Source: Massalongia carnosa
Lineage: Eukaryota
Assembly: GCA_965645245.1 (NCBI GenBank)
Contig: OZ287076.1
Location: 1,612,001-1,676,000, forward strand
Reading direction: 5' to 3'
DNA: 64,000 bases
Shown: piece after piece, positions 51 to 16,495 of the stretch
How the letters are laid out: each line of letters opens with the position of its first letter
Numbering within the stretch: the first letter of the stretch is position 1
The notes under the pieces: model-generated
The model's database searches: none
Told to the model about the DNA's origin: nothing
Seen by the model: only the letters and a program-made list of their open reading frames with translations
Position numbers and translations under genes: made by a program

Positions 51-1006
51 ACAGCCGCTACGCATGGAGCGGTTGGTCATTTGGCAAAATGAAGCATGCA
101 GGGTGACGGCCCCACCGAGCGAGGCGGTTCCTAGGAATGGAGCAATCGTTCGATCCGCTCCTGTTGAGACTATTTTTGCACATTGATCGTCCCGCGCAGC
201 CACAGCGCTGGGTGGTCGGCTGGGCGGGGGGCCAGGTTGTCGGGCGGTTCCTGGCCTGTTCAGAGGCCGGATAAACGACGGAAGGGACAGCTAATATCCG
301 TAATCCGTGCAGAACAGGGCTTCTGGGTGCAGGCGGAGGAGATACTCTGCAGTTTTGCATTTCGCAACCTTTTTTTTTGGTTCATGTACACCGTTCTTCA
401 TCGGTATCAGCAAGTCAGCGGCCACAGATCAATCAGATGAATGCAAGTTAAACCCGGCTCATGCTCTGTTCCCGGGGTTCCGCGACCAATGATGATGTCT
501 GGCGTAGTCGCTGCCAAATGCACTGCAAGCGTTGACAAGGAGTTTGTTTTCTCTGTTGCTGGGGGATGGAGGCGGCCGTCCAGTCGTCACGACCTCCCTT
601 GGAGGTCCGGCCCTGTTGTATGGAAACACTTGTTCCACGTCAAGCAGATGCAGCATGCACGAGGGGGGCAGGCATGTGTATCATGTTCATGTATGCATAT
701 GAAATGCATCCTACGTAATAGTCTAGGCACCGCATCAGGTAAAATGCACAGAGTGGAGCGGGCTCATACTCTGTAATCTGTGCCTTGTACCTTAAAGTCG
801 GGAGGAAGTGGTAAGTGCCCCTGTCCATGTAACGTTGAGAATTCGGGGTTCCCCAGGAGCAGAAGTGCCGATTTCTAGGTGTCTTGCCGGTGAAGCACCG
901 ATCGTGGTTAGCGGGATGTTTCGTTAGGGAAGTCGCTCCCCCATTGGTCTACTGTACGGAGTATGCATAGTAATGTACCTTTGTCGATGCCATCATGAGG
1001 CATCTA

Positions 1007-1182
1007 TGAGATGGTTCTATGTCACGTGAGGCCCCTGAGTCAAAGTAAATTAAGAATCACCCTCTGAAAATTCTTTCCTCATCCACTTCTTCTCACTCGG
1101 CCTCATCCATCTCACTGACTCGTCGTCGACCCCACGTTGTCTCGGTGCCCCTACCTCGCTGTCAGTGCTTGCTGCTTTTCCC
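1007..1182 (+). repeat. Ngaro repeat A1 (176 bp)
   Basis: Identical by eye to 5291-5466 (TGAGATGGTTCTATG...GCTGCTTTTCCC). Confidence 0.95.
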
Positions 1183-1251
1183 ATCTCACTGACTCGTCGT
1201 CGACCTCACGTTGTCCTCGGTGCCCCTACCTCGCTGTCGGTGCTTTTTCCC
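1107..1251 (+). repeat. ~74-bp imperfect tandem duplication in the element's 5' leader
   Basis: CCATCTCACTGACTCGTCGTCGACC...CCCCTACCTCGCTGTC occurs at 1107 and again at 1181. Confidence 0.9.
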
Positions 1252-1252
1252 A

Positions 1253-2266
1253 ATGACGAACACCCGTTCCCAAAGCACCCCGATGGACGACATAGTCCCC
1301 GACTCCTAGGAGATTGTCGGATTGACGCAGGCCCAGTCCAATCAAATCTTCGCCCTACAAAAGAAGAAAGCCGAGGCAGAAGCGAAGGCGGCCGAGGCTG
1401 AGGCCAGAATTGCCGAGTCCAAGGCATTGGTCGCCGAGAAGGAGGTGGAAAAAATGCAGCTAGAAATCGACTGCATGCGCCGAGAATCTGACGCCCGAAT
1501 AGCGGCCGTCATTCCTGCTGGCAAGCCGAGTCGTGTCGTCGGCGATGACGACGAGGACCTAGGTGAGATCCCTCTCGAAGTAAGAAGTATAGCACCCCGT
1601 TTCGCGGGCCTACCACAGGACGAGATCATCAAGATCTTTTCAAATAAATTCAAAGCCATCAACCTCTCCCGCCTCCGACACATGCACGGCATGCAATACG
1701 AGTCCTACAAGGATCAGGACCGCATCGGCATCGAAGACGGCGCCTTGAGGTTGAGAAAGGCATCCGGGACCTACAAAGATTTCGGAAAGACAGTTCATGA
1801 CGTCTGGACCGAGAGCTTCATCAACTACACCTCGATCATGGTCAGTCTTTTCGGGAAATCGAGTCAACAGCTTCACGCCACCATGTCGGCATTCCACGGA
1901 AAAATCCTCACGCTGGCCAAGGTGTACGAGTGGCAGGAAGCAGTCCTCCCCCTCGCCATCGAAACCCACACTCACATCATCGCGTCTCAGCCATCCGACG
2001 CATCCCAATGGAAAATGCCCGACGAATTCCAAGCTCGATTCTGCACCCCCCTCACAGTCCTACGCCGTCGCCGCTCACGATCCCCGCCGTCCCGGCGACC
2101 GACCCCGAGAGGAGACAGGGCCGATAGGGCCGAGAAGGCAGCGGGGGAAATCTGCGACAAGTACAACAGCGGCACCTGCACCTGGCCGTCGTGCTACCGA
2201 CAGCACAAATGTAAATCGTGCGGCGCGGCTGGGCATGGCCAGAAGACATGCCCAACGAAGAAATAG
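1253..2266 (+). pseudogene. gag: Ngaro ORF1 gag-like protein (N-terminal coiled coil, C-terminal Cys/His zinc fingers); in-frame TAG at 1307-1309
   Basis: ATG 1253 (MTNTRSQ...) is in frame with ORF 1322-2266. C-terminus is CDKYNSGTCTWPSCYRQHKCKSCGAAGHGQKTC. It is the first ORF of the element. Confidence 0.8.
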
Positions 2267-2311
2267 GGGGTTGGTGCAGGAGGCAGTAGAATAGCTTCAA
2301 TAGCTGAATTC

Positions 2312-3550
2312 ATGACGTCCCATCCCTGCTTACCTGCACCAATCAGACCAAATACAATCCCTTCGTTTCAACTCGTAGACGCATCTCGTCAGCGTTTGAA
2401 AGACAGCCCATCTCCCCTCGTACCGTCCGCATGGGCAACTCTACTTCAAGAGTATCCGGGCCCCCTCCGAGTCCATCTGCCCATGATCCTTCGTTTCGGA
2501 GTACAAATCGGATACGAAGGCCCCACAGACATCCTTCGGATCGAAAAAAATCTGACATCAGCGAATGAGGACCCGGAAACGATCGAGAATAAGCTCCAAG
2601 AGGACCTCAGGAAGGGCCGAGTCAGACGAATAGCCGCCCCGAGTCAGCCATTTGTGGCCTCCCCCCTCGGCTTGGTCCCGAAACATGACGGAGGATGGCG
2701 ACGCATTCATCATCTGTCTCATCCCAATCAAACATCAGTCAACGACAACATTCCAGAAGAGGCATCCAAATTACAATACGCCAGACTCGACGACATTATT
2801 CAATTGATTCTGTCAGCGGGCAAAGGTGCTGTCATAGTGAAAAGAGACGTCAAAGACGCCTTTCGAAACGTTCCCGTCGCACCTCATCATCAATGGCTTC
2901 TGGGTTTCGGATGGAATGACGAATTCTACACCGAGACATGCCTTTCCTTCGGACTGTCGACGGCCCCGTTCATCTTCAATCTTTTTGCGGAAGGCTTTCA
3001 TTGGATTTTGGAATCCTTTCTACAATGGAGATTACATCACTATCTAGACGACTTCGTTGCAATTTTCCCATCCGAGACATCGTCAGAACGATTGCACCAA
3101 GAAACAAAAGCCTACAACATTCTCACCGACATTCTTGGCATCCCGAGAAAGGACTCAAAAGACGCCGAGGGAACGACAGCGACAGTCTTCGGACTCGAGG
3201 TCGACACCATCAACAGTCTTATTCGTCTGCCAGCGGACAAGCTGGAAAAAGCGAGAATCATCACTACAAAGGCACTAAACGAGACGACAATCAGCCTCGG
3301 CGACATGCAGTCAATAGCGGGCTTCCTAAGCTTCTGCGCACAGGCAGTCAAATTGGGCCGAGTCTTCTTACGATTATTCTGGAATTTTATAGCCTCATTT
3401 CCCTCGGGCAGTCATCGTCGGGTCAAAAGAAGAATTCCCACATGGGTCAGACAGGATCTCATCTGGTGGAACAAACTTCTAGTGGACTTCAACGGTATTG
3501 TCTTCTTCGAGACGTCAACACGAGACACGATCAAGACAACGAGCTCGTGA
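2312..3550 (+). CDS. pol: Ngaro reverse transcriptase (pol), in frame with gag
   Basis: DIRS/Ngaro RT motifs SPLGLVPK, WRRIHHLS, KRDVKDAFRNVPV, CLSFGLSTAPFIFN, HYLDDF, FGLEVDT. Confidence 0.93.
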   Translation: MTSHPCLPAPIRPNTIPSFQLVDASRQRLKDSPSPLVPSAWATLLQEYPGPLRVHLPMILRFGVQIGYEGPTDILRIEKNLTSANEDPETIENKLQEDLRKGRVRRIAAPSQPFVASPLGLVPKHDGGWRRIHHLSHPNQTSVNDNIPEEASKLQYARLDDIIQLILSAGKGAVIVKRDVKDAFRNVPVAPHHQWLLGFGWNDEFYTETCLSFGLSTAPFIFNLFAEGFHWILESFLQWRLHHYLDDFVAIFPSETSSERLHQETKAYNILTDILGIPRKDSKDAEGTTATVFGLEVDTINSLIRLPADKLEKARIITTKALNETTISLGDMQSIAGFLSFCAQAVKLGRVFLRLFWNFIASFPSGSHRRVKRRIPTWVRQDLIWWNKLLVDFNGIVFFETSTRDTIKTTSS

Positions 3551-3966
3551 ATCAAAAAAACGCATGTAGGGCCCGAGTCCTAGTCCTCAATCAGGAAGGA
3601 TCACCGAGCATAAACGTCCGAGAAGTCGAAGCTATCCTTCTAATCCTTCAGAAATGGGCGCCGACATGGCGACATCGACAGATCCTTGTCTTTACCGACA
3701 GCAACACAGCATACACAGGATTCACGAATCTAACCCTCAAGGGACCGGCCAACGCGCCTCTACGAGAAATACTGTCCATAGCTGCAAAGTGGGACATCGT
3801 ACTACGTTGTCAATGGATCAGTGGCACTTCCAATGGACTAGCAGATGCCCTGTCACGTTTTGATGATGAAAGATTGGCTAACTTTTGCCCTCATTGGCAG
3901 AACCCATACAATTCGATGAACCTCCCTCCACCTACCTATCCTCCACACCAGGGTCAGCCCTGGTAA
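3530..3966 (+). pseudogene. RNase H domain remnant, out of frame with RT and lacking its first catalytic motif
   Basis: SINVREVEA, VFTDSNTAY and WISGTSNGLADALSR are present in the frame of ORF 2938-3966. No TDAS-like motif occurs upstream in either frame. Confidence 0.8.
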
Positions 3967-5048
3967 AACGTCTCGTCTGGCACGGACACTCGGCGGACAC
4001 GAGAAAAGGGTACGGGACGGCGATCGACTCATACGAGGCATTCTGCGCGACGACGGGACGCACGTCGTGGCCTGCAACAACCGAGTCCCTCGAGGAATGG
4101 CTAGCCGGTCGACTATACGGGGGCGGCACACCCAAGCAGGGAAAGATAAAACCAGAGACGGCAGCGAGCTACCTCGCCGGCCTCAGATCATACCATGTAG
4201 ACCGAGGATACGGCCTCACCCCATTCGAGGGGCCGAGACTTCAATTGATGCTGAAAGGGGGAAAAAGGATCTTTTCTCAGACAAAAAGAAGACGCCTACC
4301 CATTTCAAAAGAATTACTGACAAAAATCACCAGTATTCCCGCTCATTCGGCCGAAGACCTCAACATCGACGCGACATTCAAAGTTGCATGGGCAGGGTTC
4401 CTCAGACTCGGGGAAATCACCTACACTGTCGCTGATCGTAAGAAGACATCTTTTCAGAGATTGAAACCTACACGAGGTGACATCTCATTCGCCGAGAACG
4501 ATCAATACGCGACATTACGTCTCAAAAGAAGCAAAACAGACACAAATCACTCAGGAGTTCAGATAGTGCTGGCAGCGACCAATGAGAGCACTTGCCCCGT
4601 GACAGCACTACGGCGTCTTTTCAGAAATGATCCTCAGCCATCTACATCCCCGCTTTTTCGTCTCGGCACCGCATTCACCAGAGCCTCCGTCATAGCATCC
4701 CTGAAAAAGAGACTGATAGCCGTCGGCATCAACGACTCGGCATACTCGGGACACAGCTTCAGAAAAGGAGCAGCACAACACGCCGCCGACCACGGGATGC
4801 TGGATGAGAGTATTCAGAGACTCGGAAGATGGTCATCAAACGCGTTTCAGCTATACTTTCAGACGTCCCAGGCCTCACTATTCAATTTGAACCTCAGTTT
4901 TCAAAAAGGCATCCCTCTAGCAGTCCCACGTGCTGTCGTCGCCGAGACGAATCCTACAAACTCCTACCCCTACTCAATTGGGCATTCCATTGGGCGTACA
5001 GGTCAACCAGGGCATCGATCCGGAGCGCCGCCGGGCACCTCCATCTAG
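3885..5048 (+). CDS. Tyrosine recombinase (YR integrase) of the Ngaro element; open frame, no AUG near its 5' end
   Basis: SAM-like N-domain (SADTRKGYGTAIDSY) and catalytic R-K-HxxR-W-Y set: FLRLGE, SKTD, HSFRKGAA, LGRWSSNAFQLY. Confidence 0.93.
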   Translation: MPSLAEPIQFDEPPSTYLSSTPGSALVKRLVWHGHSADTRKGYGTAIDSYEAFCATTGRTSWPATTESLEEWLAGRLYGGGTPKQGKIKPETAASYLAGLRSYHVDRGYGLTPFEGPRLQLMLKGGKRIFSQTKRRRLPISKELLTKITSIPAHSAEDLNIDATFKVAWAGFLRLGEITYTVADRKKTSFQRLKPTRGDISFAENDQYATLRLKRSKTDTNHSGVQIVLAATNESTCPVTALRRLFRNDPQPSTSPLFRLGTAFTRASVIASLKKRLIAVGINDSAYSGHSFRKGAAQHAADHGMLDESIQRLGRWSSNAFQLYFQTSQASLFNLNLSFQKGIPLAVPRAVVAETNPTNSYPYSIGHSIGRTGQPGHRSGAPPGTSI

Positions 5049-5290
5049 ATCATCGCCGTCGGGCACTGCCGTCGGGCATCATCTATCGGATCGTTGAGCG
5101 TCAGCAGACGCCTCGGGCCTAGAAGATGAGGTTCTCACCTCAGCACCGACCCCGAGTCACGTGCCTAGGCCTGCCCGGGCTGACCTGTGTCGTTCCCATG
5201 CCCAATCAAATTCAAGCATTCAAATCAATTCATCCAATTAAAAGCCCCCCCAGCGCAAGCGAAGGTAACGGCACCGATAAGGGTCATAGA
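4991..5290 (+). repeat. Ngaro repeat B1 (300 bp)
   Basis: Identical by eye to 5521-5820; the YR stop codon lies inside it. Confidence 0.95.
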
Positions 5291-5466
5291 TGAGATGGTT
5301 CTATGTCACGTGAGGCCCCTGAGTCAAAGTAAATTAAGAATCACCCTCTGAAAATTCTTTCCTCATCCACTTCTTCTCACTCGGCCTCATCCATCTCACT
5401 GACTCGTCGTCGACCCCACGTTGTCTCGGTGCCCCTACCTCGCTGTCAGTGCTTGCTGCTTTTCCC
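5291..5466 (+). repeat. Ngaro repeat A2 (176 bp)
   Basis: Copy of 1007-1182 directly abutting B1. Confidence 0.95.
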
Positions 5467-5520
5467 CACCCTCGGCCACCCGAGATTCATAGCTAGTTAG
5501 AAGCCACCTTAAGTGAGCGA

Positions 5521-5820
5521 TGGGCGTACAGGTCAACCAGGGCATCGATCCGGAGCGCCGCCGGGCACCTCCATCTAGATCATCGCCGTCGGGCACTGCC
5601 GTCGGGCATCATCTATCGGATCGTTGAGCGTCAGCAGACGCCTCGGGCCTAGAAGATGAGGTTCTCACCTCAGCACCGACCCCGAGTCACGTGCCTAGGC
5701 CTGCCCGGGCTGACCTGTGTCGTTCCCATGCCCAATCAAATTCAAGCATTCAAATCAATTCATCCAATTAAAAGCCCCCCCAGCGCAAGCGAAGGTAACG
5801 GCACCGATAAGGGTCATAGA
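5521..5820 (+). repeat. Ngaro repeat B2 (300 bp)
   Basis: Copy of 4991-5290; ends ...GGGTCATAGA. Confidence 0.95.
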
Positions 5821-9184: not shown

Positions 9185-12075
9185 GACACGGAGCAGCATA
9201 GCAAACGGTCATTATAGACCATTCAATTCGATTGGTTTAACTGAAGTGGACTCGATCTGATTAACGAGTATGAACCTGGGGAGGTGGAACTTTTACAAAA
9301 AGCATCAAACTCGATTTCCAGCTTGCATCTGCCCCTCTGCCACTTCTGATGCTAGCTTATCTCGCCTGTTCCCTTGGAGCAGCAATTGGGTTCCATCCCT
9401 CGAATCAAATCGATTTCCCATATATCGGCGGTTTCATCATTCAAGTCGGCTATGGAAGTCAGGCGGCCGATAAGCAGCCACCCGCCTCCACATTTTCCGA
9501 GGCACATCTTACTTCGGACATACCATTTCATGCCCTCTTGGGTTGGATATAAAGCGCTCGCTAGGTTTAACTTCCGGCACGGGACGGGCGGCACTCTTCT
9601 CCCTCGGATCTTTCCTTCTCTTTTATCTTCTCCAGTCACCTCAAGACGGCTTCCCCAGCATTTTCCAGGCTATTGTCGCGGCTTCCCACAATTTTGCCGA
9701 AATATCACATACACTACTACATACATAAGCGATCTGAGCGTACTGCACCACTACTGCATAGCTACTGTGTGCATTGTGTTCCCGCACAGAGGAAAGGTGT
9801 GTTTCCTTTCTAACTGTTTGCTGCTGCTTTAAAGCATTCACTTCACAGAAGTATTGCGAGGCGTACTCTTTGTCTTCAATTTCACAGAAAGGGAGCGGAG
9901 GGATGGTCCGCCCAGGGTGGGTGAGGCAACTATCTAAGTGACTTGAATGGCATTGGGTCTGTATTATGGGAGCCTGCACAAAATCTCTGAAGCTGCCAGC
10001 CTTGCTTATCCAAAATACACATAAATTACGACAAGGAACCAAACTTGCTACGTACAAACAATCACGTGGCATGCTTCATTGGCTCGTAGCCCCTTGTTTC
10101 CTGTTTTACTTATCGTTGCCGTACCTCGCCCATAACCACTGAATTGAACCATTATGTTTCTTTTTAAGTACAATCACGCAATTTCCCAATACATACCTAC
10201 CTCTATACCATCCCTCTCTAGCGTCAGTTTCCCCTCACTATTCAATAGTCGTTTCGCAAATGTTTGTGCGAAGCAGCGGACTAGCTAATCTCCGGGACTT
10301 GAGCCAGAATGGAGAGGAGGTCATCCACCGTTCCTCGCACAACGTTTTTCGTGAACAAAATCAGGCCTTCCTTCATTCGTACCTTTGCCTTTTCATAACG
10401 CGACTATTTTGCGATTGGCTCGGCATTTGTGCAAAGGACAATGCTACGTCTAATTTTTTACAATGTGCCCGTATTGTGTCCTGATAGGTAGTCCGATTTC
10501 TAGGCTTCCTTGTGGCGGGCTTTTACTCAGCATACAGGCATGATCTCGGATTGCCATTTCTCTGTCTATTGTCCTTTCCTGTAATATGTGTGAGTATATC
10601 TGTATCTCTTACTCGGTTGATTTCTTTTCCAGTCTCATCGAGCCAGACCGCTGATCTCGATGAGTGTCGCTTGCGTGCTTTCACGGCTCTCGTCTTTCCC
10701 CTCTTCCACTAGTCTGCTCACCATGATTCATTTTGTTTTGCAAACGTCTTTCATACGATCGTTAGGTTCTTTCGGTGGGAGGATCCCATGTCAGTAGTAG
10801 TAGTAGTAGTTGTTGTTGTTGTTCGTTCCGAGGCTCGAGTTTTTCTTGCTCGCTTGTTGCATACCAAAAAGCCCCCCCACAGCTAATTATGCCTTTACCA
10901 CTAAGACCTTCGCTCCCTCGCTATATTCCACTTCCATCTTTCTTTCACACCTTTATCTCAGGTAAATAGAACTCCCTCCCTCAGAGAAAAATTCGCGGTA
11001 GGCTGTCCACATATCTACAGCTCATATAGCTCCTTGATGTGATTGTAAACGCTAGACCCACGATGTTGCCTTAAAAAGAAAACCTTGTAAAAGCATTTGT
11101 GTGAAATCGTAGTAGGGGATTAGCTGTGGACGTATTTTTTTCTTCTTTTTGTTGGTGGTAAGGCTTTTTTTTTTTTGAGTAGGGGATATAAATTCTTTTA
11201 GAGACGAAGGGGTTTTGGTTTGGGGGTGTATTTAAGAAGCTTCTTATTTCTATTCTTTCCTCCTCCCTTTCCATCATCACTCGTTTCATCTCTGTTTTTC
11301 CCACACTCTTTCTTTTCCAATCTCCCCTTTTCCCATGCTCTTCCTTATTCTCCCTGCAAATTTCAAAAATCCCTTTTAAAAACTCTTCATTGAACCACAC
11401 TTTCTGTCAGAATATTCCTAAACCTGAAGGATTTTACTTTCCCGCTTTCTTCCCTATAGATTGTCAAGTCTCAACTTTTCCCTGTTCGTTTGGGCCTGGT
11501 TACTTGCTTTTGGGGGTATGCGCTTGAAATAGGTATAGTCCACCTCAAGGCTATGGGATTTCAGAGGGATTTACGTAGTGAGTTAGTGGAGAGGGAGGTT
11601 GGGATGGGAGAAGTTGGACGGAGGAGTTGAGGGGCGGTGTAAGAGCTAGGGTTTAAAGGGCAGTAGGGCGGCAGGACGGACAGGGAGTGGGAAGTGACAC
11701 GGGGACTCGAATTTTATGAGATCGCTACGGTTGAGGAGAAAGTGGAAACACCCTCATATACCCCAAAAAACAGGCATCCATTCGCAACGGCTTCGGGGGA
11801 GTTAAATTCCTAACAATGATTATCGATGTAGTAGGGCTGAGGGTGACTGCGGCTGGTGAGCGGGGTAATGGGTAATGGGAGGTTGGGTAGTCAGAAAAGG
11901 GGAGGGGACTAAGGTAGGTAGGGCTGAATGAATGGCACGTGATAAATACGGGCATGTGTGTACATGTACGTAAGAATCTGTGCAGCTGCTGAGCAGTTGT
12001 TTCTTTCTTGCGAGAGTTTTCCATTTCATTATGTTAAGGATATAACATAAGTTAATAGGTTGCCCAATTGCAAGA

Positions 12076-15000
12076 ATGGGTGATTATTCCGCCCCAAGTA
12101 GTGTAGCAGCAAATACCTTTCTACCGGCAGAACGATCAGTGAGGGAAGGCATCTACTGGGGTTGGCCGCCTTCCGGAAGCTTTGCCTCCTTTGTCTGTCG
12201 TTTTGCACATCTTGAAAAACATAATCGAGTGGATCATTCGGTCTTCTTTGATGCTGACAACGAGGTTTTTGGTCCACGGATCCATCTTGGCGAAGGTGCA
12301 TTATTTCGTGTAGAAAGATCCGAATGGAGGAAAACAGAGCCTAGCAAGCCACTTTCGGAGAATGAGAGGAAAAGAGGAAAATATGTGGCCCTCAAGGGGG
12401 CATTGCCAGGGCCGCGAGGGCAGTGGAGTGATGTGTGGCTAGAAGTTCGGGCGCTCCTTCACAAACCACTACGATACCATCCGAATATAGTTCACCTACT
12501 AGGACTTAGATGGGGCACAATATCTGGCAATGACTCCATATGTCCTATTCTAATCATGGAATATGCACAAGGAGGTTCGCTCCTCTCTTTGCAGGAGAAT
12601 AACCCTAGGTTACCATTTGTGATGAAGCAAAAGCTTTGTCATGATGTGGCAAAAGGTCTTTCGATTCTGCATGCGTGTGGAATTGTTCATGGAGACTTGA
12701 GAAGTGAAAATGTTTTGATTTTCCAAAACCATCAACCGGAAGTTTCATATACGGCGAAGTTGGCGGATTTTGGCGGATCAGTTGGGGACACCACTAAAGA
12801 AAGGGCAAACTCGCTTCAACTGGGAACTTGGCCCTACACGCCACCGGATACTCCTGAAAACAGACTAGATGTGCTTTCAGGGGGCGATTGGACCTACACG
12901 CCACCGATAGAGACATGCTATCGGTTAATTGAGGGTGTCAAGCAGGCCGACGTATACTCTTTTGGGCTGCTTGTATGGAGGACAATTATTGATGGTCAAA
13001 GCATTTTGGATGTTTCTGAACTAAAGAACAAGACGACTCTAGAAATCCAAGGGATGAAATTGAGCGATCACTTTGGGGCTATTGCCGAGAAAAGCATCCG
13101 AAGCCACGGTGCCGCGCCAGTTCTATCTGAAAATGAGCTTAACGTCATATTTTATGTCCTTGACAATACCATTCAGACGGAGCCAACAAAGCGAAGCCTT
13201 GCGAAAGTATCGGCTGCCCTGAAAGGCATAGAGTAAGTAAAATGAACACCCAATGTGGCTAAACCCTGACTCTGCTAGCATTTATGCCATCGAGGACTTC
13301 CTCGGGAATATTAGGAGAAACGAGATAGCGAAAGAAACTACCCAGGAGAAGGATCCGGAAAGAGACGAGGTGGACGGGGACGGCATATGTTACTCTTTGG
13401 GGGAGTTGGTGGACAATGACGATGCTCAAGAAGACTGTACTGGATATCGTCTTGGACTAGATCATCTTGATACTGAAAATACGCTTTTTGAACCAAATAA
13501 CCTCAAGGCCATCTTAAGCTGGGAGCAGCAGAACAAGATGGTTTCTGATTTCGTAAATGCTGCAACTGGTGCGATAACGGATTCCTTACTGGAGTTGAAA
13601 CCTGGGACGGCAGCATATTATCTATTTCAGTGCCATCTTACCGAATTCGGGGTCCTTTTTGATGCTACAAAAGTCTGTTACTGGCTTGCTCGAGCAGCTA
13701 CCTCGGAACATGAAGGTGGTGTCTGTAACTACGCAAAGGCCTGGCTTTGGCGTATTGAGAATGTTTACCATTTTCAACCAGACATCTCGTCAGATGCCCT
13801 TCGCAGATTAATGGGCGACTCGATAATCAGAGGTCATCGAACCTGCATTCAAGATATTGGAATCATCATACAAGATTCTGAACTGTCAACTGAAGAGGAA
13901 AGAAATGCATGGAGAGAGACGCTGAACAAGTCTACGAAGTCGCTGTATACCTCCGGTGGAGCAGTTAGAATGCCTTACTTTCCAGCTAGGATTATGCGCC
14001 AAGATTACTGCCTTCATGATTTAGAGATATTGGACGGTGAAGTTGAAGCACAGTTGGGAGCTGATTATGCAGCTTCATTGAGTTTTGGATTGCCCTGGGA
14101 TATCCAGCTTGAGTCTGAGACAACTGGGTGGCGGACATTTGATAAGATCTATGTCAACCAATGTGGGCATGGGCTGCTTCATTATGCAGCATCGATGGGA
14201 AAACTTATAGCACTGAAGCACCTAGTAACGAAATATAAGGCTAATATCAACCTTCCAAGTCGAACACTTTCCGAATCTCCGTTAATGTGCGCCTGTATTA
14301 GCGGTCATTTAGACTGCGCGGTCTTCCTACTCGAACGTGGAGCTGATCCTTCCGTTAGTACACAAACAATGGAGACTCCAATGCACTGGCTCTGTAACTT
14401 TGACGAGGATGCGATACCTGTTATTGCAAAAAAGCTTAGGGATGCTGGTGTCTCTATTGATACCCCTTGTCATGGTGAACGAGAAGATAGGGGCCCTATC
14501 TGGACTGATTGGGAGAAACTGTATTCGGTCCCTGTCACTCCTTTAGGCAGGGCCGTGATTTTGAAAAGCTTGCCGGCTATAAGAGCGCTCCTTGCACTGG
14601 GCGCGGATCCTCTAGCAAGGCCGAAATGGGGCGAGAATGGCAAACCCGCCAGATCGGCAATTGAGCTCGCCGCAGTCTTGACGCTGCCACATATATTGGA
14701 GGTTCTTCTGACTTATGTTGATGCAAGATCAGGGGTGAGACCTAGGATATTCAATGAGTATGAGATGCTTCGGGCGGCTCATAACAAAATCATCACCCCT
14801 TGTGATACACTTTCGCTCCAGAGCAGGCTGGTTCGATGCGGAAAGAACTATAGACATGATTTGTGGCTAACTCTGCAGATGTTGCGAAAACGAGAACAAG
14901 AGTTGAAAAGCTGGCAAGATGGAGACGAGTCTAGAACCGAAGGCCGCCTGTTGTGTGAAGAGGTTAGTCTCGGTGAAATAGACATTGTGGAAATGTTGCT

Positions 15001-16495
15001 TGGGCTAGGACACAGTGCGAATGGATCTCCAGAATACCGACCCATAGTTGAGGCAGTGAAACTGAACCATGAAATCATGTTTCGCCTCCTCGTCAATCAC
15101 GGTGCCGAAGTTTCTGCAAAAGTGGAATCCAACGGACGTCAACTGTCGTTGCTTCAATTATCTGCCAGCCGCCCAAGAACTTCTCGATCGGGCTGCGCTA
15201 TTGCGGAAGATCTGTTATGTGCAGGTGTGGCAATTGATCCGATTTGTGATGGGACCTGTCCTGCCTTTGCCTTGGCTGTAAAGAATCAAGATTTCGAGCT
15301 TGCCGATCTCCTTCTCGCGTATGGAGCCGATGTCAACGCAACATATCAAAGTGTTCTTGGAGGCAATTGGATCACAGTTTTGGAGGAGTTAGGCCAGGAT
15401 CATTTCAAGAAGAAAATTTCACAGAGCAGTAAGAGACTCCAGTCAAGACTTTTGATTCTAGAAGACCCTATGGATGGTGCTTTGCCGCCGCACCTGGAAG
15501 CGGGTCGACAGAATAGTGTAACAAACACATCACTGCCAAACCGAATCATTGAAACCCCCTCTGGAGGGGACCCATCGGGAAACGTAAAATCGGAAGTGAT
15601 CCGGCAACTTGATGAATCAAAAGAAGAAATCAATCCTGAACTAATAGAAACTCCAAGTACAACCCTTTCAGACCCACTTCCTCGATCTTTTTCAAGCATA
15701 GAACCCAAGAAAGACGACGCCGTTTTACGACAAGTCTCTACGTCTACACTAAATGTAGATGATTCCTCGTGCAAATCAGGCAAAACAGAAGTCGAAGCAA
15801 ACCCTCCACCCGAGAATCAGCCACTGATAATCAACTCGGACGAGTCCAATCACACAATCCCTCCATCGCCCTCTCCCGTCACATCACCTACCCAGAATCC
15901 TCCCGGCCAACCCCTTCCGCCCGGCTGGGAAATGCGCCCCGATTGCACCGGCCGCATCTACTACCTAAACCACAACACCAAAACCACCACTTGGCTCCGC
16001 CCCAACTCAAGCGACGAAGGCACCCAAGAGCTCCTTCCCGCAGGGTGGGAGGTCAGGATCTCGGAACCGGCCGGTCGGCTTTATTACATTGATCACAATT
16101 CCAAAACCACAACCTGGGAGCCCCCCAGCTCACAGGATTCGGCAACCAAGCCGAACCTCCCCACTGGGTGGGAGAAGAGAAGAACGGAAAAGGGGAGGCA
16201 GTATTTCGTGGACCATAACACCAGAACTTGCTATTGGGACTTGCCTGCCTCGGTCTTGGCCTCGGTGCCTCCTCATCCTGCAGCAGCAGCCGCTGATGCA
16301 GAGAAGGGGAATCTGCAAGATGGCGACGACAAGGGAGAAGATTCCAAACCTTCAGGGACTGGGGCTGCGGTGTCCGAATTAGGGATGTTGGTGGAAACTC
16401 CCGCTGCGGCTGGGGAATTTGGAGTGAGAGCGGAAACGGAGCTGGAGCGATTAACGAGAGAGCTTATGAAGGCTATGGGGAAGGGGAGTTTGTGA
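12076..16495 (+). CDS. Protein kinase - helical region - ankyrin repeats - 3x WW domain protein (~1457 aa; one 46-nt intron 13233-13278)
   Basis: Kinase motifs LGEGALFRV, VALK, HPNIVHLLG, HGDLRSEN, ADFGG, DVYSFG. Intron GTAAGT...CTGAC...CTAG fuses the two ORFs in frame (GA|C ATT TAT). Ankyrin repeats (LLHYAA, ESPLMCAC...GADP, TPLGRAV) and three LPxGWE...Y(Y/F)xxHN...W..P WW domains. Confidence 0.88.

Follow-up and report, generated by a model that had tools for sequence, protein, structure and literature searches.

Candidate stop-codon readthrough between gag and pol in a Ngaro-type retrotransposon of an ascomycete and in related families

The locus

The window (a stretch of 64,000 nucleotides, positions 1,612,001 to 1,676,000 of the forward strand of contig OZ287076.1, Massalongia carnosa assembly GCA_965645245.1; positions below are counted from its first letter) carries a retrotransposon at 1006–5820 in which gag and pol share one reading frame with a UAG codon between them, and in which Gag-Pol is probably made by programmed readthrough of that codon. 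All features of the element lie on the forward strand, and its three genes are enclosed by split direct repeats in the order A1-[genes]-B1-A2-B2: A1 (1006–1182) is 100% identical to A2 (5290–5466), and B1 (4991–5290) is 100% identical to B2 (5521–5820). Split direct repeats A1-B1-A2-B2 are those of Ngaro elements (PMC6681497, PMC9210276).

The gag open reading frame (ORF) extends from the ATG at 1253 to the TAG at 2264–2266, is uninterrupted from 1310 onwards, and is the part to which the gag of relatives aligns; at its C-terminus it encodes a CCHC zinc knuckle, CKSCGAAGHGQKTC (2210–2251). The sequence-only reading of this DNA had described a gag end of AAG AAA TAG with the same frame continuing beyond it, and both were found again in sequence and translation: the codons stand at 2258–2266, and the frame stays open from 2267 to 3547, taking in the ATG at 2312–2314 and the reverse transcriptase (RT) domain. 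The pol frame (2267–3550) consists of a linker, a conserved N-terminus and the RT (Pfam RVT_1, E 1.3e-12), and is shortened by a frameshifting deletion at about 3532–3535, behind which the remainder of the RNase H (3536–3966, in another frame, within ORF 2920–3966) matches the C-terminal part of the related pol protein P0122. The third gene is a putative tyrosine recombinase ORF (3882–5048) with a weak Pfam match (Phage_integrase, E 0.0054, 17 bits, under the curated cutoff of 27.1). In 31 of the 37 family representatives described below a homologous ORF follows downstream, most of the others having too little sequence past the RT start. An HxxR...W...Y pattern, as in such recombinases, can be made out by eye in the translation. 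A Pfam scan of five ORFs gave no protease, integrase or methyltransferase family, RVT_1 and the weak Phage_integrase match being the only results; the lack of a methyltransferase is the criterion that separates Ngaro from DIRS1-like elements. The best reading of the element is a retrotransposon of the Ngaro type, with a tyrosine recombinase, whose host is an ascomycete.

At the junction (context AAA UAG GGG GUU), the UAG at 2264–2266 is the candidate readthrough codon. It is followed by the 5' arm of a stem (2269–2286, codons of the Gly/Ala-rich stretch GVGAGG), a loop that contains the in-frame ATG at 2312–2314 from which gene callers start pol, and the 3' arm (2326–2344), which falls in the codons of C-L-P-A-P-I, a conserved motif immediately ahead of R-P-N-T.

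Close copies of the element

Sister copies were judged from protein clusters and from Logan contigs of four runs (X1, X8, X9 and X10), three of which cover the junction, X10 being without cover there. The TAG at 2264–2266 and the 5' arm of the stem are unchanged in the contigs of X1 (1006–2626), X8 (1007–2801) and X9 (1973–2307), and the 3' arm is unchanged in X1 and X8; a further X9 contig (2310–2464) has one difference, of unassigned position. All three covering runs (3/3) thus keep the stop at 2264.

The window copy itself is a defective member of its family, with a private stop in gag and a frameshift deletion in the RNase H. An in-frame TAG at 1307–1309, 18 codons into gag, is private to this copy: position 1307, T here, is C in the Logan contigs of X1, X8 and X9. 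The contigs of X1 and X8 have 45 extra letters plus a 4-nt overlap at 3532–3535, from which it follows that the window copy carries a 49-nt frameshifting deletion; it takes out the first RNase H motif, and 4 nt are common to both sides of its junction. In the sister pol proteins P0001 and P0122 (567 aa) the RNase H is intact, with 16 residues beyond those of the window copy, including the first RNase H motif. As the terminal repeats are 100% identical despite the deletion, this may be a young copy, either mobilised in trans or deleted after insertion.

Such damage elsewhere in the copy would fit an explanation in which the TAG at 2264 is itself a mutation in a dead copy, arisen by repeat-induced point mutation or decay, and in which intact elements carry a fused gag-pol. 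Two relatives can be read in the same way: the more distant proteins P0012 and P0136 (~41% identical) are continuous across the junction and have Lys in place of the stop. Each stems from a truncated or diverged copy, and a junction-spanning protein search gave no fused gag-pol protein of high identity. The stop at 2264 is kept in the contigs of three other runs, which lack the private defects of the window copy, and for this reason it is not taken as decay; in addition, 0/65 of the relatives described below are fused and a junction stop is present in 37/48 families. This origin of the stop is extremely improbable. A sense codon at 2264 in sisters, which the sequence-only reading had named as a reason to give up its proposal, is absent from the close contigs (TAG in 3/3) and was met only in the two decayed relatives with Lys.

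Two further observations concern the copies. A 65-bp segment at the end of A1 (1107–1170) is repeated directly at 1181–1245, just 5' of the gag ATG, with 95% identity, and in this repeat region an X9 contig is short of 1 nt at 1215 and of 17 nt at 1231. Across runs X1–X10, which stand for eight coded organisms (A–H), 23–89% of the sampled words of the element are present, that is, near-identical copies, and no RNA run was listed; close relatives, mixed samples or horizontal spread could account for them.

Frame and stop in related families

For the wider comparison, 80 related loci (RT 37–55% identical) were retrieved from metagenome contigs with a profile of 43 pol proteins and anchored by tblastn with the window RT and with gag proteins. 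Together with the window copy this made 81 elements, of which 65 have both gag and the pol N-terminus, 11 have no detectable gag (mostly on short contigs), 4 have no pol N-terminus, and 1 (L066) has an ambiguous gag match. Gag and pol share a frame in 56 of the 65: exactly one stop separates them in 41/65, two stops in 6/65, and three or more, as in decayed copies, in 9/65. Gag and pol lie in different frames in the remaining 9/65, and fusion without a stop was found in 0/65.

Clustering at >=80% nucleotide identity gave 61 families, 48 of them determinable, and of these 37 have a single junction stop, 6 are represented by decayed same-frame copies only, and 5 were seen solely with gag and pol in different frames. 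The expectation that relatives would place pol in the gag frame therefore held for the single-stop families (37/48) and failed for the five with another frame only. The different-frame loci are L018, L023, L024, L033/L036, L051/L053, L058 and L061; L061 carries a frameshift, as its gag is 100% identical to the gag of the conforming L063, and the others could be decayed copies or frameshifting lineages.

All three stop codons are used at the junction (TGA 20, TAG 12, TAA 5 among the 37 representatives), and they are exchanged within families: TAG in L011, L015, L029 and L030 stands against TAA in L012, and TAA in L071 against TGA in L080. As far as such comparisons go, stop-to-stop swaps and the use of all three codons are signs of selection for a stop as such. 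A conserved in-frame stop among homologues, which had been proposed as a check, was thus found in 37/48 families, with 0/65 fused and swaps in two families. The CCHC-type knuckle of the relatives lies about 17–28 residues ahead of the junction stop.

Stop-codon contexts

The 37 junction stops were compared for the nucleotide after the stop (+4) with pol terminators taken from these same elements (n=24, ORFs with >=450 codons). C follows the stop in 27/37 junctions vs 3/24 terminators, G in 7/37 vs 5/24, T in 2/37 vs 3/24, and A in 1/37 vs 13/24. The excess of C at the junction has a binomial p of 3.7e-8 against a C content of 0.289, and a Fisher p of 4.3e-6 against the pol terminators.

Several junction hexamers are of the CAA/CAG type (UAG CAA UUA in L009, UAG CAA CCA in L020, UAG CAG CUA in L010); stop-CUA occurs in 9 families, 4 of these with CUAG, including UGA CUA G in L038, L044 and L045, and L005 has UGA CGG. 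These junction hexamers of the relatives correspond to readthrough contexts of types I and II, and to leaky contexts of yeast and mammals, as listed in PMC4615788. Upstream of the stop, A is present at -1 in 20/37, at -2 in 22/37 and at both in 15/37, which agrees with PMC4615788 and is confounded by the Lys-rich tails of gag.

These contexts bear also on the idea that the stop is bypassed in another way, by a short intron spliced across it or by ribosome hopping. Nothing direct speaks for this, the nearest case being Tca2, a retrotransposon of Candida albicans for which non-canonical bypass was concluded by its authors (PMC2194720). In the sequence as read, the stretch between the zinc-knuckle codons and the TAG contains no GT; in relatives, the contexts resemble readthrough signals and not splice sites, and the Logan contigs, none of them on record as RNA, show no joints. 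Such a bypass is very unlikely.

The start of pol

Among 13 examined members of the 59-member pol cluster, 10 start at the equivalent of the ATG at 2312, and 0/13 reach further upstream. In relatives this Met aligns with Ile or Leu (F-[ILM]-x-S-H-x-C), and conserved residues lie upstream of it; going by these alignments, Met 2312 is not a conserved start codon. No ATG is present between the stop and the conserved RPNT motif in 17/34 representatives. In the 19 linkers of >=50 codons (1898 codons in total) there are 0 in-frame stops vs 49 and 83 in the other two frames; the zero is partly by construction, as the nearest upstream in-frame stop was taken, which does not apply to the position of that stop right behind the gag zinc knuckle. 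Linkers of about 90–180 codons, open in frame, are found in L037, L038, L044, L049, L055, L070, L077 and L078, and long linkers consist of short peptide repeats, e.g. QHTA or PHRD(K/T/M)SFI.

These data were set against the possibility that Pol is translated separately, beginning at the ATG at 2312 in the family of the window and at different starts in other families, by leaky scanning, reinitiation, an internal promoter or an internal ribosome entry site, with both the shared frame and the stem unrelated to recoding. In the window family an in-frame ATG does occur 15 codons past the stop, the one used by gene callers in 10/13 cluster members, and some linker ATG is present in 17/34 families. 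In Tca2, moreover, promoter activity was found at the junction, and the flanks of the stop did not direct readthrough in a Saccharomyces cerevisiae reporter (PMC2194720). Separate translation would not call for a shared frame, which is seen in 56/65 elements, nor for open linkers of up to 183 codons (<=183) that abut the gag stop; it is at odds with the 17/34 families that lack an ATG ahead of RPNT, with the alignment of Met 2312 to Ile/Leu and the conservation upstream of it, and with leaky contexts that differ sharply from those of true terminators. Separate translation of Pol is unlikely.

The hairpin behind the stop

The helix of the sequence-only reading (2269–2286 with 2326–2344, 18 pairs, two of them G-U, one bulged A, at 2332) is present exactly in the minimum free energy (MFE) fold of 2264–2350, and the pol ATG at 2312 lies inside its loop. 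This fold has -34.5 kcal/mol and z -3.63, with 1/200 shuffles as good; for 2267–2347, z is -4.17 and 0/200 shuffles are as good. The stem starts at 2269, 2 nt past the stop, and the MFE fold pairs even G2266 and G2267.

In relatives the stem was sought by a duplex test, i.e. the best pairing of the 36 nt after the stop with the 48 nt around the RPNT codons. Families with G at +4 gave z values of -3.7 (L017), -3.0 (window), -2.9 (L021), -2.6 (L022), -2.5 to -2.7 (L006, L007), -2.5 (L003) and -2.3 (L028), with L026 (+0.2) as the exception, a +4 G family without a stem; in CAA and CUN families z is mostly close to 0. Of the 34 representatives with data, 6/7 +4 G families vs 5/27 others have a z below -2 (Fisher p 0.002), and if L028, which is not among the 37 representatives, is added, the stem is present in 7/8 +4 G families. 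Folding from the stop to RPNT gave z -4.27 (L017), -3.75 (L003), -2.46 (L022) and -1.75 (L006) in +4 G families, and -1.57 (L009), -0.79 (L025), -0.36 (L027) and +0.21 (L010) in families of the CAA type.

The stem pairs post-stop codons with the CxPAP codons in the window family, L017, L022, L021, L003, L006/7/8 and L028. In the +4 G families the 5' arm begins at the first post-stop base and the 3' arm lies in or adjoins the codons of C-x-P-A-P / P-R-P, the loop between them measuring from ~39 to ~130 nt in relatives; the arm sequences and the pairing register vary from family to family. In MAFFT the 5' arms of L003, L004 and L005 did not align with those of the other families. RNAalifold, run on the 3 alignable ones of the 8 +4 G families (window, L017, L022), returned an 8-bp core, GGUGYAGG / CCUGCACC, and below it four further pairs, of which one is compensatory. 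Since the 5' arms are not alignable and the register differs between families, the energies of own and swapped partners were used instead: for eight +4 G families the own-partner sum is -228.6, which beats all 14,833 derangements (best -208.4). Between the window and L017, 16/18 post-stop nucleotides are identical at an RT nucleotide identity of 52% (third positions 34%), and identity of the post-stop nucleotides despite 34% at third positions points to a constraint on the RNA. The stem conservation and covariation asked for by the sequence-only reading were thus borne out in part: the stem is present in 6/7 +4 G families and its arms co-vary between families, and column by column the covariation is thin, with one compensatory pair in three alignable families.

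For a pseudoknot, pairing of the window loop (2287–2325) with 2377–2416 was considered (-21.5 kcal/mol, z -3.45 with mononucleotide shuffles, z -2.8) and was rejected as not conserved: loop-downstream pairing in relatives gave z +0.63 to +1.27 (L017, L022, L021, L006, L028) and -1.46 (L003). The pairing in the window is probably due to chance or specific to the family.

Whether the hairpin stimulates readthrough depends on its position. According to a 2026 review, the entry channel of the ribosome takes up about 11–12 nt past the A-site codon, and the start of proven stimulators lies at +9 to +16 (PMC13517186); shortening the spacer of Moloney murine leukaemia virus (MoMLV) by a single codon strongly reduced readthrough, and the stem of PSIV, the single one listed there at +2, is not stimulatory (PMC13517186). 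The missing spacer (+2 vs ~8 nt or more in proven stimulators) is the weak point of the hairpin as a stimulator. While UAG occupies the A site, the stem has to melt at its base, leaving outside the ribosome the upper 9 bp and small inner hairpins, and 2278–2335 alone is weak (-12.5 kcal/mol, z -0.83).

With the non-stimulatory PSIV stem and the stemless +4 G family L026, these points favour a reading in which readthrough is real and the hairpin serves something else, be it packaging, dimerisation, slowing of ribosomes for Gag folding or masking of the ATG, or is a by-product of Gly codons opposite Pro/Ala codons. It would leave unexplained that the stem associates with non-C contexts (6/7 vs 5/27, p 0.002), that the fit of own arms is better than in any derangement, and that the nucleotides of the 5' arm are conserved where the protein is not. 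A hairpin without stimulatory function is rather improbable, though of more weight than separate translation of Pol; for the hairpin as the readthrough stimulator, the chance is about even.

Surroundings of the element

The genes on either side of the element are of eukaryotic kinds (kinase, ankyrin/WW, WD40, M20 peptidase). For the M20 peptidase, every named homologue is from an ascomycete (~59–65% identity), mostly from lichen-forming Lecanoromycetes and also from Aspergillus and other Eurotiomycetes, which bears out the fungal host of the sequence-only reading. The nearest protein-atlas clusters of the element are animal or protist RT clusters and give no guide to the host. At 12046–16495 a protein-kinase ORF is followed directly by an ORF of 1084 codons whose product has ankyrin repeats as well as three WW domains, and the two may be one gene. 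A search of the 64-kb window against Rfam gave 0 matches at the gathering score.

Discussion

Programmed stop-codon readthrough is proposed as the source of Gag-Pol both in the family of the window and across a wide clade of Ngaro relatives, with a probability of about 0.7. The proposal is well supported by comparison, through the shared frame, the conserved stop, the leaky contexts and the hairpin of the +4 G families. Pol would have no translation start of its own in the family and the clade; a minority of ribosomes would decode the single in-frame gag stop by a near-cognate tRNA and yield a Gag-Pol fusion, and their share would set the Gag:Pol ratio, as in gammaretroviruses. In families with C after the stop, the context alone (CAA-YYA-like, CUA(G)/CUN/CGG) may drive readthrough; the UAG-G family of the window may rely on the long hairpin, with its 5' arm right after the stop and its 3' arm in the C-x-P-A-P codons of Pol.

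Several of the observations given above weigh against this proposal: the Lys at the stop position in P0012 and P0136, the ATG 15 codons past the stop, the five of 48 families with gag and pol in different frames, the confounding of the A-rich -1/-2 positions, the silent flanks of Tca2 in yeast, and, for the hairpin, the lack of a spacer, the weakness of 2278–2335, the absence of a stem in L026, the thin column-wise covariation and the absence of conserved loop-downstream pairing.

A broader version of the proposal, which seems slightly better supported than its denial, holds that a clade, probably fungal, makes Pol solely by readthrough and that its families have swapped all three eukaryotic signal classes at one codon, with a spacer-less hairpin as a new class. 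The swapped classes would be CAA-YYA, UGA-CUA/CGG and stop-G plus structure, forming a natural series of interchangeable recoding signals; in the spacer-less hairpin, codons of a conserved Pol motif would make up the 3' arm, and the same bases would then be under constraint both as protein code and as RNA.

If readthrough is confirmed, its range would widen to a third major retroelement group, in addition to retroviruses/LTR elements and RNA viruses, on evidence from dozens of families and not from a single case. Annotation would improve, as gene callers currently either split the gene or take an internal Met as the pol start. In fungi, the families would present type I, II and III-like signals at a single homologous site, a natural panel useful for the trade-off between context and structure, including whether a spacer-less hairpin can stimulate; they would also be a comparative counterpart to the Tca2 case. 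In the accessible papers on the DIRS order, control of the Gag:Pol ratio is not worked out.

Readthrough itself is of a known kind, as in gammaretroviral gag-pol; what would be new is its proposed occurrence in tyrosine-recombinase retrotransposons, of which no description was found, in agreement with the sequence-only reading, which was aware of none for Ngaro elements. Full-text searches gave no literature linking Ngaro or DIRS elements with readthrough, and a passing mention of the stop in the founding Ngaro paper, reportedly that of Goodwin and Poulter in 2004, is possible. In the fungal survey of Muszewska et al. 2013 (PMC3783388) the word 'stop' occurs 0 times.

Comparison with known systems

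The junction of the window resembles that of MoMLV (type III; PMC13517186, PMC4615788), with which it shares a zinc-knuckle gag, an in-frame UAG-G, a same-frame pol, a G-rich 3' sequence and a downstream RNA structure. Unlike MoMLV, the window has a long hairpin at +2, no 8-nt spacer and no conserved H-type pseudoknot, and unlike gammaretroviruses the element gave no match to a protease or integrase and has a putative tyrosine recombinase instead. The likeness to murine leukaemia virus drawn in the sequence-only reading therefore extends to UAG-G (UAG GGG, 2264–2269) and to the presence of a 3' structure, and stops short of the ~8-nt spacer and the H-type pseudoknot.

As in the stem-loops of alphaviruses and coltiviruses (VEEV, SINV, CTFV; PMC13517186), two conserved coding stretches 3' of the stop pair across a variable loop; in contrast to these stems, which follow UGA-C and start at +12 to +16, that of the window follows UAG-G and abuts the stop. 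The exact hexamers of type I (UAG-CAA-UYA, tobamovirus, active in yeast) and type II (UGA-CUA / UGA-CGG; PMC4615788) are found in relatives, whereas the window junction has neither context and falls in the structure-bearing +4 G group.

A fungal case for comparison is Tca2 (pCal), a Ty1/copia element in which gag, UGA and pol lie in one frame with a putative pseudoknot and in which Pol is translated from the gag-pol RNA (PMC2194720). Like the Ngaro element, it is a retroelement of a fungus that has one in-frame stop and, 3' of it, a predicted structure; unlike Tca2, which is an LTR element, the Ngaro evidence comes from many families with canonical leaky contexts. The gag, RT/RNase H and putative tyrosine recombinase genes are those of DIRS1-like, PAT-like and animal Ngaro elements. 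As the sequence-only reading had stated, elements of the DIRS order are mostly described with overlapping ORFs: overlap is frequent (PMC9210276), and in the Ngaro-like families of Xenopus all ORFs overlap (PMC6681497). Unlike these, the Ngaro clade described here has gag and pol in one frame with one stop between them.

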